From assembly GCA_003551645.1 (NCBI GenBank), contig PUND01000065.1, forward strand, positions 1 to 63,590: DNA of 63,590 bases, written 5' to 3'. A model generated the notes under the pieces. The model made no database searches. It was not told the DNA's origin and saw nothing but the letters and a program-made list of their open reading frames with translations. The DNA comes from Phycisphaerae bacterium (lineage in GTDB: Bacteria > Planctomycetota > Phycisphaerae > SM23-33). Every line of letters starts with the position of its first letter. Position 1 is the first letter of the stretch. A program made the translations under genes and the position numbers. This document shows, in pieces, positions 51,271 through 57,409 of this stretch.

Positions 51271-51443
51271 GAAGAAGTTGCCTCTGCCGTGTTCGACAGG
51301 CGGCCCACAATAAAAGAACCGTTACCCCATTACTCAGGGAAGCGTAGTCCGCGGCGCCGAGGCGTCCGGCAGCTGCCCACTTAGACGAGATTGGGTTCTT
51401 TTCGTCGGCCGTCACCGGCACCTGGCGGAGGCCTTCTTTTTTT
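51271..51443 (+). ncRNA. ssrS: 6S RNA (probable)
   Basis: ~170 nt rod. Pairings: GCCTCTGCC/GGCGGAGGC, GTGTTCG/CGGCAC (the typical 6S closing-stem motif), GGCGGCC/GGCCGTC and AAAAGAACC/GGTTCTTTT. A ~40-nt closing stem is followed by a central bubble and an apical stem (GGGAAGC/GCTGCCC), and the RNA ends in a U-tract. Confidence 0.72.
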
Positions 51444-51658
51444 CACCGCGGGCGGCCCGCCGCGTCGGGCCGCCGGCGCATGCCTTCGGCGGGCAAGGGT
51501 CTTGCAAACACGTCCGCCAAATCCGCATAATACCGCAATCGCGGGATTTGTACGCCGCCGGGTCCGATACGTGCCGCCGCAGTGTGTGGCGGGGTCGGTT
51601 CCGGCCGTGGCCGCGACTGCAACGCCCCAGCGCCGGGGCCTTTCCAACCGGAGTGATT

Positions 51659-54600
51659 ATGAGCTGCTACGTCGGAATCGATATTGGCGCGGTAAGCGCA
51701 ACGGCCGCACTGCTGGACAACGGCGAGAACCCGGTTTCTTTCACTGACGGCGATACGCTGCGTGAGATGTCCGGCTCGCGAGTCGGGCGTGTCTATCTCA
51801 GCAACTACCGCCGCACCCAGGGCAGGCCCATAGCGGCCGCGACCGAACTGCTCGAAGAGGTCATCGCCGCGGTTGGGGCGGAGAACATATCGGGTGTTTG
51901 CCTTACCGGCAGCGGCTCGAAGCTGGCGGCCCGGAAGCTCGAAACCTCCGTCGTCAACGAGTTCAAGGCCCTTGCCACAGGCGTCGCCGCGGCGGGCATC
52001 GAGGCCAACACCGTCTTCGAGATGGGCGGCGAGGCCAGCAAGTACCTCCGTCTGGAGCACCACGACGACGGATCCTGCGGGATAATTGATTACGCCACCA
52101 ACGGCGACTGCGCCGCGGGTACCGGAAGCTTCCTGGACCAGCAGGCCGGGCGACTGAAGTTCAGCGTCGAGGAGATAGGCCCGAATTCGCTGTCGGCCGA
52201 CCGGGCGGCCCAGATTGCCGGACGATGCAGCGTCTTCGCCAAGAGCGACATGATCCACGCCCAGCAGAAGGGCTACGGTCCGGCGGAGGTGCTTCGCGGG
52301 CTTTGCGACGCGGTTGCCCGGAACTTCCGCTCCGCGGTCGTCCGCAGCCATCCGGTCGAGCCGCCGGTTGTGCTGGTCGGCGGGGTGGCGGCCAACGAGG
52401 CGGTCGTCCGCTCCATGCGGGACGCCTTTGAGCTGGATGATACTCAGCTTATCTTGCCGGAAAACTACGCGCACCTGCCGGCGATAGGCGCGGCTGTGAC
52501 GGCCTCGCGGACTGCCGACGCCGCGGACCTCTCGCACATGTCCGACCTGCGGTCGGCCAGCGACACGGCCGCTTCGGACGCATTCCCCACCACCGCCCCG
52601 CTGAGCATGGACCGCGTTGTGCTGCTGCGGGACCAGGTGCTGCCGTATGAGCCGCCGTTCTCTGATGAGCCGATAGACGCCTACCTCGGCCTGGACGTCG
52701 GCAGCGTATCGACAAACCTGGTGGTAATCGATTCCGACGGGCAGGTCATCACCGAAATCTACACGCGCACCCAGGGCAGGCCCATCGAGGTAGTCTCCGA
52801 AGGCCTCAAGCAGATACGCTCCGAATGGGGCGATAAGCTGAATATCCGCGGGGTCGGGACTACCGGTTCGGGGCGCGAGCTTATCGGGATACTGGTCGGC
52901 GCGGACACCATCAACGATGAAATCACCGCCCACAAGACCGGTGCCACCTTCATCGGACACAAGATGCTCGACGGCCGGGTGCCCGACACAATCTTCGAAA
53001 TCGGCGGCCAGGACTCCAAGTTCATCTCGCTTCAGGACGGCATTGTGGTGGATTTCACCATGAACGACGCCTGCGCCGCCGGCACCGGCAGCTTTCTGGA
53101 AGAACGGGCCGAGGAGCTTGGCATCGCGATCAAGGAGGAGTTCGCCAACTTCGCGCTTTCCAGCGAAGCGCCCACCCGCCTCGGCGAGCGGTGCACCGTG
53201 TTCATGGAACGCGACGTGAACAGCTACCTCCAGAAGGGCGCCGAAAAGCCGGACCTGGTCGCGGGGCTGGCGTACTCGGTGGTGTATAACTACATCAACC
53301 GCGTCGTCCGCGGCCGCAAGATTGGCGACAGCATCTATTTCCAGGGCGGCACCGCCTATAACGACTCGGTGGCGGCCGCGTTCGCGGCGGTCTGCGGCAA
53401 GGATATAATCGTGCCGCCGCACAACGGCGTCATGGGCGCCATCGGGGCGGCCCTGCTGGCCCGGGACAAAATGAACGCCGAGATGACGCCCGAGGAGGCC
53501 GCCGCCGTCGGCGGCGAGGGCGGCCAGGGCGGAACTTACCTCGCAGAATCCGACCGCGAACCGGCGAGCAGGACCAGCCAGTTCCGCGGCTACGACCTGT
53601 CGCAGGTCAACTACACGCTCCGGGAGTTCACCTGCAAGGCGTGCTCGAACCACTGCCGTATACAGGAGTTCAACGTCGAGGGCGAGAAGACCTACTGGGG
53701 CGACAAGTGCTCGTCCCGCTACCGCAGCCAGTCCGCCAGCGCCCGTGAGCCGGTGATCGACGACCTGCTGTCTCTGCGTACAGAGCTGCTGCTGGACGAG
53801 TCGCATCTGCCGGAGGTCCCCGAAGGCGCCGCCTCGGTCGGCATACCCATGTGCATGTTCGCCTACGATCAGTTGCCGTTCTGGCGGACCATGCTCGCCC
53901 ACTGCGGGCTGCGGGTGGAGCTGTCCGAGACCACCAACAACAGTATCATCACTCTCGGCGGCGAGACCGCGGTGGCCGAGCCGTGCTTCCCTATCATCGT
54001 CGCTCACGGGCACGTCCGTCGGCTCGTCGAGCGGGACGACCTCGACTGGGTCTTTCTGCCGAACATCGTCTCGCTGCGGACGCGCTGGATGGATACCGAA
54101 AGCCACCTTTGCCCGTGGCATCAGACGTTGCCGTTCGTCTGCCGGCAGGCGCCGGCCATCGCCCCGAACGCGGGCAAACTGCTGGAGCCGATAGTGCATT
54201 TCCGTGAGGGAAAGAAGTTCGTCACGCGCGAGCTTCAGGACTATTTCGCCAGGAAGCTGAATCTGCCGAAGCGGCGGGTGGCTCGTGCCGTCGAAGCCGG
54301 CTTCGAGGCCCAGGAGCGGTTCCGCGGCAAGCTGCTGGCCGCGGGGCAAAAGGCGCTGGACACGCTCGACAGGACCGGCGAGACGGGCATCGTGCTGGTC
54401 GGCCGGCCCTACAACATCCACGACGCCGGCGTGAACCTCTCGGTCGGATACAAACTCCGCAAGACCTACGGCGTCAACGTCATACCGATGGACTTCCTCG
54501 ATACCGAGGCCGTCGATATCCGCGATATCAACGAGAACATGTACTGGCCGCTGGGCCAGCGAATACTCGGCGCCGCCAAGATAGTGGCCGAGCGGCCGAA

Positions 54601-54817
54601 TCTGCATATCATCCACATAACCAACTTCAAGTGCGGGCCGGATTCGTTCGTCAAGCACTTCATCCGACCGGCTGCGGGGCAGAACCCGTTCCTGTCCATC
54701 CAGTTCGACGCACACAGCAACGACGCCGGTATCATGACGCGCTGCGAGGCATACCTCGACAGCAAGGGCGTGCTCCGGCCGTGGCGATCCGAACAACCCG
54801 CCGCGGCTACGGCGTAG
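51659..54817 (+). CDS. Double ASKHA activase + DUF2229-like protein (CoA-substrate activase; PlsA/Ger-like)
   Basis: Two BcrAD/BadFG domains (GIDIG..NGDCAAGTGSFLD..CSVFA; GLDVGS..NDACAAGTGSFLE..CTVF), C..C.N.C, EPCFP, CPW, GRPYN, NFKCGPD and RCEA. Confidence 0.9.
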   Translation: MSCYVGIDIGAVSATAALLDNGENPVSFTDGDTLREMSGSRVGRVYLSNYRRTQGRPIAAATELLEEVIAAVGAENISGVCLTGSGSKLAARKLETSVVNEFKALATGVAAAGIEANTVFEMGGEASKYLRLEHHDDGSCGIIDYATNGDCAAGTGSFLDQQAGRLKFSVEEIGPNSLSADRAAQIAGRCSVFAKSDMIHAQQKGYGPAEVLRGLCDAVARNFRSAVVRSHPVEPPVVLVGGVAANEAVVRSMRDAFELDDTQLILPENYAHLPAIGAAVTASRTADAADLSHMSDLRSASDTAASDAFPTTAPLSMDRVVLLRDQVLPYEPPFSDEPIDAYLGLDVGSVSTNLVVIDSDGQVITEIYTRTQGRPIEVVSEGLKQIRSEWGDKLNIRGVGTTGSGRELIGILVGADTINDEITAHKTGATFIGHKMLDGRVPDTIFEIGGQDSKFISLQDGIVVDFTMNDACAAGTGSFLEERAEELGIAIKEEFANFALSSEAPTRLGERCTVFMERDVNSYLQKGAEKPDLVAGLAYSVVYNYINRVVRGRKIGDSIYFQGGTAYNDSVAAAFAAVCGKDIIVPPHNGVMGAIGAALLARDKMNAEMTPEEAAAVGGEGGQGGTYLAESDREPASRTSQFRGYDLSQVNYTLREFTCKACSNHCRIQEFNVEGEKTYWGDKCSSRYRSQSASAREPVIDDLLSLRTELLLDESHLPEVPEGAASVGIPMCMFAYDQLPFWRTMLAHCGLRVELSETTNNSIITLGGETAVAEPCFPIIVAHGHVRRLVERDDLDWVFLPNIVSLRTRWMDTESHLCPWHQTLPFVCRQAPAIAPNAGKLLEPIVHFREGKKFVTRELQDYFARKLNLPKRRVARAVEAGFEAQERFRGKLLAAGQKALDTLDRTGETGIVLVGRPYNIHDAGVNLSVGYKLRKTYGVNVIPMDFLDTEAVDIRDINENMYWPLGQRILGAAKIVAERPNLHIIHITNFKCGPDSFVKHFIRPAAGQNPFLSIQFDAHSNDAGIMTRCEAYLDSKGVLRPWRSEQPAAATA

Positions 54818-54856
54818 TCATCGGTTAATCGGTTGATTCGTTGATTGGTTGACTGG
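54817..54856. repeat. Five degenerate 8-bp tandem repeats (TTGATTGG-like)
   Basis: GTCATCGG TTAATCGG TTGATTCG TTGATTGG TTGACTGG immediately after the activase stop codon. Confidence 0.75.
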
Positions 54857-55039
54857 TGAAGCTCGGCTGGCAGTTCCGCACTATTAGAACGGCAACGATG
54901 CCTCTGCTCTAGGCATAGTCCGCCCCAATTCGATCGCCAAGCGAAGGCCGGATTGTTCCAGCGAATACCCATTTCGGCTTTTTCTTTTTGTCACTCGGAT
55001 CAGGTCGACAGGCCCTTTCGTCGCCGCTAGAAGAACCCC

Positions 55040-55270
55040 ATGGGCAGACGCCGGGACATAACTGAACGATTGGGTTGGGTCGTGCGTGAGCGCCGGATTG
55101 AGCTAGGCATGTCTCAGGAGCGGTTGGCTGGAACTGCCGGAATAAACAGAAGCTATATCGGTGACATCGAACGAGGGGCTAGAAATCCGGCCTTGGGGAC
55201 GTTGGTCAAGCTTGCGCGTGCATTGGAGCTTGATGTTGCTGAGCTTATTCGTCGGGCAGAGGGGAGTTGA
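55040..55270 (+). CDS. XRE-family HTH regulator, restriction-modification controller (C-protein)-like
   Basis: 76 aa; MSQERLA..AGINRSYIGDIERG.RNP.L..L.KLA.AL. Confidence 0.85.
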   Translation: MGRRRDITERLGWVVRERRIELGMSQERLAGTAGINRSYIGDIERGARNPALGTLVKLARALELDVAELIRRAEGS

Positions 55271-55271
55271 T

Positions 55272-56297
55272 ATGTGCCCCACTGTTTTCGAGTTACTCGA
55301 TGGGCAGGACGACAGAATTGACTACGAGCAGGTTCTGTCAGCATATCCATGGGTTGTTGAGCAGGGACATGACTGCATTGTAAGCCCGGATAGCGACGGA
55401 TTGCTCTGCGGTTTGCTGATGACCAATGCATTGAACTGGCGAGTGCGTGGCTTCTACGATGGCAAGGCCCTTGTCGCCGATCACAGAATTGCTCCATCGG
55501 AATGCGTCTTCCTTGATATGGAGATATTTCGAAGTGGTGTAAGGAGTGTCGGGCACCACATGTTGCTGTACAACAAGAACCAGGTCCCTGGCTCCTGGGG
55601 CCAGTTCAGTGACGCCCTGTCCGTAAACGACCTCCGCAATCGTGACGGACTTCACGATTTCCGTCTTAAGTATCCGTTCGGAACGATACACTTTTTACTG
55701 GCGGTTGTGGCCCGCCAGACGGAAGTACCCTTTGAGCCAACGGCGGTAGCGCCGCTGCTGTTCACGGACGGTACCTACAAGAACCTGTTTGGATATACCG
55801 AAAACTGCCTCAACTGGCTCCGGTATCTGCGCGCCGACGAAAAGCGCAGTCCGCTACGAACCTTATTCTACGAGGATACCTACACGATAGAGAAGCTGAT
55901 GCGCGGAATGAACGACTTCTGGCGCACCAGAGATGAGATCAGCGTGTCCGGCCAGCGCGGCGATAGGGTAGGGATCACGAACCGAGGCGGGCGGGGAGAG
56001 GTTATCAACATGGTCGCCAATGGTGACTGGTTTGACTTCGACGCGCAGGCTAGGGCGAGGGCCGAACGCTTTCTTGAACTTTTGGCCGAGAAAACCGGCT
56101 GGCGATACGAGCGGAGCTGGTGGACCTGGGGCCCTTGGCGGCTTCGGAGGTTCACGAAGAGGGATTTCAAACAGACCAAAAAGAGCGTGCGAGGAGAGAC
56201 CTTTGCCGAAATGCTTGCTTCGGAACCTTTGTCGTTTGCCATGACGTCGAACGACAACTACGAGTATACCCTCGAACAGCCGGACACTTTCGAATAG
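55272..56297 (+). CDS. Hypothetical protein with DHH-phosphoesterase-like motifs
   Basis: SPDSDG, VFLD, GHH and FTDG in DHH motif order. ATG lies 1 nt after the HTH stop codon. Confidence 0.6.
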   Translation: MCPTVFELLDGQDDRIDYEQVLSAYPWVVEQGHDCIVSPDSDGLLCGLLMTNALNWRVRGFYDGKALVADHRIAPSECVFLDMEIFRSGVRSVGHHMLLYNKNQVPGSWGQFSDALSVNDLRNRDGLHDFRLKYPFGTIHFLLAVVARQTEVPFEPTAVAPLLFTDGTYKNLFGYTENCLNWLRYLRADEKRSPLRTLFYEDTYTIEKLMRGMNDFWRTRDEISVSGQRGDRVGITNRGGRGEVINMVANGDWFDFDAQARARAERFLELLAEKTGWRYERSWWTWGPWRLRRFTKRDFKQTKKSVRGETFAEMLASEPLSFAMTSNDNYEYTLEQPDTFE

Positions 56298-56300
56298 GCG

Positions 56301-57128
56301 TCAGAACAACCGAGGTAATTCCCGGGTGAGGCGTTTCTCCACAAGCTGACAGTATTCCCGGCTGATTTCAAAACCGATGAAGTGACGGCCCAATCGTTTC
56401 GCCGCGACGGCGGTTGTGCCACAGCCCATAAAAGGATCAACCACCAAGCCGCCTTCTGGGCAGAAACACCTAATGATATCCTCGGGTATGGCGTCGGGGA
56501 AGGGCGCTGGATGTTGCCGCTTGATGGGATCCTTGTCTCCGGCCATTAGGTAGTCCCATACGGTCCCACGGCATTTCATCTCATTGATTGGCCTTCGGAC
56601 CGTTTCCCCGGTAGTGCCATCTGTCCGTCTGTTGCCGCTGCCGCTCAAGACCTTGCCGCCGTGCTTTGACGGGACCTTCAGCGGTTCTTTGTCAAAGTGG
56701 GCTGGACGATCCCCCTTCAGGAACAGCGGTATATACTCGTGATCGACTCTAAACCGGTGTTTCCACCACGCGCCCTCGGTTCCATGCTTCCGATATATCA
56801 CACACTCAAACAGCTTAAACCCAATGTTGTCGCACCAGTCGACGATTGTACGGAAAGAGGTCAGGGTTTTGCCGAAATTCTGGGTTTGGTCCTGTATGAC
56901 CATTGCTGCGATAGATCCCTGCTTAAGGACTCTATATAACTGTTCGCCAGTGGCATGCAGATCATACTGGAATCCCGTATATGTCCTTACGCCGTCGTAG
57001 GGGGGAGAGGTGACAGCCATATCAACGGACTCATCGGGCAACGCGGCAAGACCTTCCAGGCAATCCATGCACTGGACGGTATCTATCCAGTCAGCGTGTG
57101 TCGAAGTGTCTGTCTGTGCGTGGCTCAT
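56301..57128 (-). CDS. DNA methyltransferase, beta class, N4-cytosine type
   Basis: DCLEGL..LPDESVD..VTSPPY (motif IV), HPAPFP and VVDPFMGCGTT..AA..LGR.FIG.E (motif I, C-terminal). Confidence 0.93.
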   Translation of the reverse strand: MSHAQTDTSTHADWIDTVQCMDCLEGLAALPDESVDMAVTSPPYDGVRTYTGFQYDLHATGEQLYRVLKQGSIAAMVIQDQTQNFGKTLTSFRTIVDWCDNIGFKLFECVIYRKHGTEGAWWKHRFRVDHEYIPLFLKGDRPAHFDKEPLKVPSKHGGKVLSGSGNRRTDGTTGETVRRPINEMKCRGTVWDYLMAGDKDPIKRQHPAPFPDAIPEDIIRCFCPEGGLVVDPFMGCGTTAVAAKRLGRHFIGFEISREYCQLVEKRLTRELPRLF

Positions 57129-57409
57129 TCGGGAGTATCCTATCAGCCAAATTGCCGTGCTGTGTTTTGGCCACTCGCTCAATCCGGAAGCCGCCAGTAC
57201 ACGGAAGCATCGCCCGTGGCGGCAAAACGATCATGTGTCCTTATACACCACGGAACGGGTATGGGCAACTCAGAGGTATGTTTTTCACCAGATCCGGCCG
57301 CTTTTGTCGCCGGTCGGTGCGAAACCGAAGGGATGAGCGAGTGTTGTAGCTAAAGAGCAGGTGAGGAAGCTTTGTCCCGTCCGGGCCAGGCAAGGAAAGG
57401 ATTTTAGAC

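Follow-up and report, generated by a model that had tools for sequence, protein, structure and literature searches.

Organisation of the cassette

The window analysed here (63.6 kb; the whole of positions 1 to 63,590 of contig PUND01000065.1, from a Phycisphaerae bacterium) was found to carry a three-gene cassette within an islet of low G+C (GC) content. The genes encode a controller-type (C) protein with a helix-turn-helix (HTH) fold, the product of a gene that we have designated X, and a beta-class DNA methyltransferase with an SPPY motif, which is convergent with X (Table 1). Taken as a whole, the probable reading is that the cassette is a controller-regulated type II restriction-modification (R-M) system in which X is the restriction enzyme, with a DHH-like catalytic domain. 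That X is a restriction endonuclease we hold to be very probable, because it is obligately linked to the methyltransferase, no third gene accompanies the pair and carriers of the cassette avoid the sequence AGSCT (AGCCT/AGGCT).

Table 1 Features of the cassette, with their positions in the window and the evidence for each
Feature	Position	Strand	Evidence
Low-GC acquired islet holding the whole cassette	54820-57400		GC, GC3, unrelated flanks in relatives
Candidate C-box-like operator TGTCACTCGGATCAGGTCGACA, 22 nt	54989-55010	+	Conserved upstream of orthologous C genes
Controller (C) protein, 76-aa XRE-type HTH	55040-55270	+	Pfam, PADLOC and PDB sequence matches
Gene X (P0001), 341 aa, candidate type II restriction endonuclease	55272-56297	+	Methyltransferase linkage, AlphaFold2, Foldseek, conservation
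Beta-class DNA methyltransferase, SPPY motif IV, 293 aa	56301-57182	-	Pfam, PADLOC, PDB, motif order

The C protein matched Pfam HTH_3 (1.5e-16) and the PADLOC model 'Control_protein' (5e-14), and its best PDB sequence matches were C.AhdI (8e-12), C.BclI and C.Esp1396I. Its gene lies upstream of X and in the same orientation, which is the position of a small C-family HTH gene in controller-regulated R-M systems. The ATG of X is located 1 nt past the TGA stop codon of the C gene (55268-55270), with GGGGAG 6 nt upstream of this ATG; C and X are therefore translationally coupled.

The end of the candidate operator TGTCACTCGGATCAGGTCGACA lies 30 nt 5′ of the ATG of the C gene. This element was kept upstream of orthologous C genes in loci L001/L015, L016 and L090 of our survey of carriers (see below), which hold Planctomycetota-type cassettes, despite the unrelated flanks of these loci. 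At the equivalent position L078 and L092 have a TGTGACTTATAGTCCGT-type box of the canonical GACTnnnAGTC type; we take TGTGACTTATAGTCCGT to represent the classical GACT-N3-AGTC type of C-box. The candidate operator of the window is a degenerate variant of the C-box, to which the C protein would be expected to bind. One of the three GTCGAC sites of the window falls within this C-box-like element.

The stop codon of the methyltransferase gene is 3 nt from that of X, and its start is either the TTG at 57182 or the ATG at 57128. The protein matched Pfam N6_N4_Mtase (5.3e-36) and PADLOC MTase_II (1e-38), and its best PDB matches were TTHA0409 and N4-cytosine methyltransferases. The catalytic motif IV, TSPPY, precedes the S-adenosylmethionine (AdoMet) motif I, DPFMGCGTT, and the enzyme therefore belongs to the beta class; both motifs are intact. 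The SPPY motif points to N4-cytosine methylation, and from its sequence the enzyme is predicted to be of the N4-cytosine type.

The islet has a GC content of 0.549 compared to 0.661 elsewhere in the window, placing it ~11 GC points under the host. Along 54600-57400 the GC content was 0.52-0.58 while the flanks had 0.62-0.70, and the GC content at third codon positions (GC3) was 0.53-0.67 in the cassette compared to 0.80-0.85 in the adjoining genes. A comparable offset was found in the relatives L001, L016 and L090, and related cassettes in other genomes were flanked by unrelated housekeeping genes. The cassette is small, mobile and horizontally acquired. A search around it for flanking direct or inverted repeats as marks of insertion found nothing convincing, and a scan of the cassette for sigma-70 promoters and terminators was uninformative. 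Directly after the stop codon of the upstream gene (54817), between 54824 and 54855, there are four tandem copies of the 8-nt unit GTTGATTN, which lie at the left edge of the low-GC islet; no counterpart was seen at the right edge. This array could be an insertion junction or an array of binding sites.

The first-pass annotation, made from the letters of the sequence, had described a lower-GC islet in which a controller-like HTH gene coupled to an unknown gene faces a convergent SPPY beta-class methyltransferase, in the C-R / M layout of some type II R-M systems. Every element that it named was found where it had been placed, and the low GC, the coupled controller and the class and orientation of the methyltransferase were all borne out by the analyses above.

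Distribution of X and its linkage to a methyltransferase

Searches of X against the hidden Markov models of Pfam, NCBIfam and PADLOC returned no match. Against PDB sequences only chance matches were obtained, whether the query was X alone or the profile of its family, and a comparison of 30 members with Pfam at E up to 10 likewise yielded nothing but scattered noise. No member carried a name beyond 'hypothetical protein' in any source. The family comprised 920 proteins in a word-indexed search and 556 cluster representatives at 50% identity in an exhaustive profile search (106 below 1e-30). It is absent from mobile-element collections of cultured organisms: tblastn with X found no match in 72,556 plasmids and 50,697 phage records.

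The closest relatives of X were encoded by Planctomycetota and shared 71% and 57% identity with it. Beyond these, the distribution of the family was patchy over many bacterial and archaeal phyla. Among the best 80 species genomes (see below), the bacterial carriers were Planctomycetota, many Patescibacteria, Chloroflexota, Ignavibacteriota, Bacteroidota, Elusimicrobiota, Cloacimonadota, Chlorobi, Proteobacteria and Firmicutes, and the archaeal carriers included Woese-, Pace- and Aenigmarchaeota (DPANN) and Methanobrevibacter among the methanogens. An identity of ~45-55% across distant phyla, together with the unrelated flanking genes, indicates horizontal spread.

When one genome was scanned for each species, 145 relatives of X were obtained, of which the best 80 were kept as species genomes. 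These are included in a set of 94 loci in which all open reading frames (ORFs) were translated and searched with the three proteins of the window. X was located within 63 bp of a methyltransferase of one family in all 94 loci, including 80 of the 80 species genomes, so that the check on co-occurrence suggested by the first-pass annotation came out in its favour. The methyltransferase was convergent with X in 83 of the 94 loci and upstream in tandem in the other 11, and the partner methyltransferases form one tight family (~1e-150 after iteration). As it recurs in 94/94 loci, the layout is no chance arrangement. No third conserved neighbour was found: among 797 other flanking ORFs the largest cluster was present in only 5 of 80 loci. 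There is therefore no alternative candidate for the nuclease, and besides X no other gene could fill that role. X has the obligate linkage to a methyltransferase that is characteristic of the nuclease gene of an R-M system, its own nuclease role being predicted.

The association extended to distant relatives. Three members with ~25% identity adjoined N6_N4 methyltransferases, in tandem and overlapping, and P0207, a protein of 623 aa from the representative library, is a fusion of the two partners, in which residues 20-255 form an N6_N4 methyltransferase and residues 307-500 a domain of the X type.

The regulators around this pair were variable. An HTH gene preceded X in 41 of the 94 loci and was absent from the other 53. 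In L007 (4995-6422), L017 (1995-3476) and L044 (4503-6044) a complete LexA (LexA_DNA_bind and Peptidase_S24) was fused to the N-terminus of the methyltransferase, and ORFs of this fusion type, 485-514 aa in length, were present in ~23 of the 80 loci. In L020 (4529-5659) the LexA DNA-binding domain alone was fused to the methyltransferase. Some of the loci with LexA fusions also retained the upstream HTH gene, and other X loci had no recognisable regulator. Interchangeable regulators around a constant X-methyltransferase pair are the pattern expected if one of the partners is toxic alone.

These data bear on two other explanations of the locus. The C protein also weakly matched antitoxin models of the HipB/HigA type, which, together with its translational coupling to X, could be taken to mean that the HTH gene and X are a toxin-antitoxin pair that merely stands beside a methyltransferase. 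It is, however, the HTH gene that is missing from 53 of the 94 loci and the methyltransferase that is missing from none; the best matches of the HTH protein are R-M controller proteins and the C-box-like operator is conserved, which makes a toxin-antitoxin pair extremely unlikely. Alternatively, X could have an accessory role, as a phosphoesterase or regulator accompanying a methyltransferase that is an orphan or has another partner, any restriction being done elsewhere. Such a role would suit the known DHH enzymes, which act on single-stranded or small substrates. It is very unlikely in view of the position of X next to the methyltransferase in 80/80 genomes with no other conserved nuclease candidate, the existence of the fusion P0207, control by a C protein or LexA of the kind typical of toxic R genes, and the avoidance of AGSCT in carriers (see below), which would need a cutting activity.

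Predicted fold and conserved residues of X

An AlphaFold2 model of X, built on an alignment of 30 sequences, showed two domains with a predicted local distance difference test score (pLDDT) of 91.4 and a predicted template modelling score (pTM) of 0.92. The N-terminal domain (~1-225) is DHH-like and the putative catalytic part, and the C-terminal domain (~229-341) is presumed to be the specificity part. A second model was made of residues 1-228 (pLDDT 88.9). A Foldseek search of the PDB with the full-length model found nothing at E up to 0.001. The top nine PDB matches (E 0.1-0.4; template modelling score (TM) 0.2-0.3) were all to DHH proteins, namely RecJ-Cdc45, RecJ2, Staphylococcus aureus RecJ, DhhP, GAN and GdpP. 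For the N-terminal domain the best match was S. aureus RecJ (E 8.5e-3, probability 0.54), followed by other RecJ proteins, GAN, DhhP and PggH. The list from BFVD, a viral library, was likewise led by RecJ and 'DHH family phosphohydrolase', all at E >0.09.

The first-pass annotation had read four DHH-superfamily motifs in X, PDSDG, FLD, GHH and TDG. All four are present in the translation (at residues 39-43, 80-82, 94-96 and 165-167) and fall on invariant or near-invariant columns of the family. In an alignment of 41 sequences, reaching down to ~20% identity, the invariant residues were D42, G60, D82, G94, H96, K133, P135 and W182, and the near-invariant ones included D40, D166, N119 and S321. 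The model places strand 34-37 before P-D40-x-D42-G and a helix after it (motif I), strand 78-81 before D82-x-E/D84 (motif II), strand 91-94 before H95-H96 (motif III) and helix 156-165 before T-D166-G (motif IV). As modelled, the order of the motifs and their secondary-structure context are those of DHH motifs I-IV, and the D-x-D of motif I, the D of motif II and the D of motif IV were conserved in DHH order across the 41 sequences. An unconstrained hhalign comparison of the X family with NrnA-type sequences aligned motifs I, II and III in register. We therefore consider that the catalytic domain of X is probably a true derivative of the DHH superfamily.

Several observations weigh against this assignment. 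No DHH match was significant, the best Foldseek E being 8.5e-3 with TM 0.2-0.38, and SIS-type and other Rossmann-like domains were interleaved among the matches of the N-terminal domain. Pfam PF01368 (DHH) gave no match with 30 members of the X family at E up to 10. The hhalign comparison of the N-terminal domain with a DHH alignment was also not significant (P 0.25), the template being thin: it was a small alignment of Bacillus subtilis NrnA, two staphylococcal NrnA proteins and TmPDE, and a search for NrnA homologues gave only sequences of at least 65% identity, so that the DHH profile was not deepened. In global mode the comparison with this alignment was meaningless. Motif III is S-[IV]-G-H-H, in which the invariant G94 replaces the Asp of DHH and H95 varies between H, Q and N, and the GGGH motif of DHHA1 is absent from the X sequence. 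Furthermore, to our knowledge all characterised DHH nucleases are single-strand exonucleases, and an endonuclease action on duplex DNA would be new for the fold.

Matches that all fall short of significance with TM at most 0.38, the similar scores of SIS-type and other three-layer alpha/beta domains, the lack of a Pfam or hhalign match, and G-H-H in place of D-H-H without GGGH would also fit a restriction endonuclease with a catalytic domain that is not homologous to DHH, but is a Rossmann-like alpha/beta metal nuclease of independent or other origin which mimics the DHH motifs. We regard this as unlikely. DHH proteins filled the top nine places in the PDB list and most of the top places in BFVD though they make up a tiny share of either library, and mimicry would have to account for four motifs in DHH order, with matching secondary structure and the invariants of the superfamily. 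Of the readings considered, the DHH one put forward by the first-pass annotation is the best: DHH proteins head two independent Foldseek lists and the named motifs are conserved, but the homology falls short of statistical significance.

The first-pass annotation had also stated that X lacks the motifs of PD-(D/E)xK, HNH and GIY-YIG nucleases, and here the results agreed with it. No match to an HNH, GIY-YIG or PLD signature was found in Pfam, NCBIfam, PADLOC or PDB (E up to 1-10). X does contain a literal PD-x22-DxK pattern (P39-D40 ... D63-G-K65) that is invariant in the close family, and it could on this ground be read as a cryptic PD-(D/E)xK enzyme. We rejected this reading, which is barely credible and which the first-pass annotation had named as a finding that would refute its own proposal: D63 and K65 are unconserved in the wider superfamily; the model has a 14-residue helix between D40 and D63, giving a beta-alpha-beta arrangement and no beta-hairpin; no PD-(D/E)xK structure was among the Foldseek matches; and no restriction-enzyme model in Pfam, PADLOC or PDB matched X.

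The C-terminal domain conserves ERGDR and P-L-S-x-A. Distant relatives of X aligned over only ~12-200 of the profile and diverged beyond this point, which is consistent with a catalytic domain that stays constant while the recognition domain attached to it can be exchanged.

Avoidance of AGSCT in carriers

Observed counts of short motifs were compared with those expected under a Markov model of maximal order. Among the 16 NN-N-NN palindromes, AGNCT showed the strongest depletion in the window, with 28 sites compared to 130 expected. This depletion was concentrated in AGSCT, with 4 sites compared to 88.6 expected, an observed to expected ratio (O/E) of 0.045 and the lowest of any 5-mer; outside the cassette there were 3 sites compared to 85.9 expected. 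AGWCT (AGACT/AGTCT) had 24 sites compared to 41 expected (O/E 0.58).

The same motif was avoided by the other carriers. When the 80 carrier loci were pooled (546 kb), AGSCT was again the lowest 5-mer, with an O/E of 0.32 compared to 0.68 for the next lowest, and AGWCT had an O/E of 0.74. AGSCT was under expectation in 66 of 70 informative loci, 20 having zero sites, and it was depleted in every GC class of carriers (O/E 0.50, 0.29, 0.11 and 0.03). By comparison, six replicons that encode other beta-class methyltransferases without X (245 kb, GC 0.43-0.66) showed an O/E of 0.94 for AGSCT and 0.92 for AGWCT, and three distant-subfamily loci with a different C-terminal domain had no deficit of AGNCT (O/E ~1.0). 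We conclude that carriers are under selection against AGSCT, which would require a cutting activity of that specificity and tie it to the cassette; for sequence-specific cleavage itself this evidence is indirect. It is likely that AGSCT is the target of X, possibly with weaker action on AGWCT, and the conserved symmetric cytosine of AGS-C-T is the predicted target of N4-methylcytosine (m4C) modification. We know of no characterised enzyme with the specificity AGSCT, and literature searches, with REBASE outside their scope, found no paper in which AGSCT or AGNCT is described as a motif for restriction or methylation.

Two findings sit less easily with this account. AGWCT was mildly depleted too (0.58 in the window and 0.74 in the pooled loci), and the exact degeneracy of the target may therefore differ from AGSCT. 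Also, the low GC of the islet implies a recent arrival, yet the avoidance of AGSCT by the host is extreme. For both to hold, the lineage must have met this specificity over a long time or repeatedly, or else a second system must share the target; related cassettes occupy other sites in other Planctomycetota, which bears on the former option.

Several 6-bp palindromes were strongly under-represented in the window, namely GAGCTC (0 sites compared to 29 expected), GTCGAC (3 compared to 31), CAGCTG (4 compared to 20), CTCGAG (7 compared to 28) and GGGCCC (6 compared to 23), and GATC had 138 sites compared to 294 expected. These deficits suggest that several further restriction systems have acted on the lineage over a long time. 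Upstream of the islet, a 1117-aa ORF at 51443-54796 (-) mirrors, in antisense, the real 1089-aa gene at 51548-54817 (+), and is most likely a high-GC artefact and no gene.

Proposed mode of action

After entry of the cassette into a cell, the methyltransferase would be made first and would methylate AGSCT, guarding the host DNA by probable N4-methylation of the conserved cytosine on both strands. The C protein would accumulate, bind the candidate operator and switch on transcription of C and X, a control that would both delay and limit transcription of C itself and of the coupled X. X, as a putative metal-dependent phosphodiesterase, would then cut unmethylated AGSCT in incoming DNA. Its N-terminal domain would act as a diverged DHH/RecJ-like metal-dependent phosphoesterase, with D40, D42, D82, E84, H95/H96 and D166 as likely active-site residues, while the target sequence would be read by the C-terminal domain, in whose place distant relatives carry another. 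For the order of expression, the chemistry and the active-site residues, this scheme follows C-controlled systems and DHH enzymes.

Comparison with known systems

The type of system is classical. For the endonuclease family, none of the libraries searched holds an annotation. Restriction enzymes use only few catalytic folds, namely PD-(D/E)xK, HNH, GIY-YIG, PLD and half-pipe (PMC2441816), and 56 characterised type II enzymes were without a fold assignment as of 2008 (PMC2441816); X may therefore match one of those in REBASE. No report of a DHH-fold restriction enzyme was found in the literature. X may stand for an additional catalytic class among restriction endonucleases, with a two-metal phosphoesterase domain of diverged DHH/RecJ type, and we put the odds of this at about even; on this reading the family, which is widespread and most of all so in Patescibacteria, DPANN archaea and Planctomycetota, would change its target by swapping its C-terminal domain. 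If confirmed, the fold would be one unreported for restriction enzymes in the literature searched, and with X a DHH enzyme would for the first time be seen to cleave within duplex DNA at a specific sequence. A large unannotated family on another scaffold would likewise lengthen the list of restriction-enzyme folds. With PADLOC, Pfam and NCBIfam all silent on X, defence annotation misses hundreds of such systems, and AGSCT would be a potentially new and useful 5-bp specificity.

Restriction enzymes outside the PD-(D/E)xK class, such as BfiI (PLD), PabI (half-pipe), KpnI (HNH) and Eco29kI (GIY-YIG), provide a precedent for the use of unrelated nuclease folds. Like X as predicted, they often divide catalysis and recognition between two separate, joined domains; unlike X, in which none of these was found, they have the PLD, half-pipe, HNH and GIY-YIG folds or motifs.

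The best structural neighbours of X, in two libraries, were members of the DHH superfamily (RecJ, archaeal RecJ/GAN/Cdc45, NrnA, GdpP, DhhP and family II pyrophosphatase). X shares with them a two-domain architecture of similar size and a parallel alpha/beta N-terminal domain in which D-x-D follows strand 1, an Asp follows one of the later strands and an H-H pair the strand after that, with a further Asp where a helix starts (TDG in X, GDTG in NrnA). It differs in having no significant sequence or profile match to the superfamily, no motif I His and no DHHA1 GGGH, in the Gly that stands for the Asp of DHH and in the additional invariant motifs NPN and KYP. X would also cut duplex DNA at a defined site, whereas the known DHH nucleases are single-strand exonucleases.

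As a system, the cassette most resembles the C-controlled type IIP R-M systems Esp1396I, AhdI, BclI, PvuII and BamHI. It has in common with these a C-type HTH gene placed ahead of a coupled R gene, an adjoining or facing beta-class methyltransferase, an operator (here a candidate) upstream of C, small size, mobility and an atypical composition, and avoidance by the hosts of a short (pseudo)palindromic target. X itself had no detectable relation to their R proteins or to any solved or modelled restriction-enzyme family. Unlike these systems, relatives of X can exchange the controller for a LexA that is fused to the methyltransferase.

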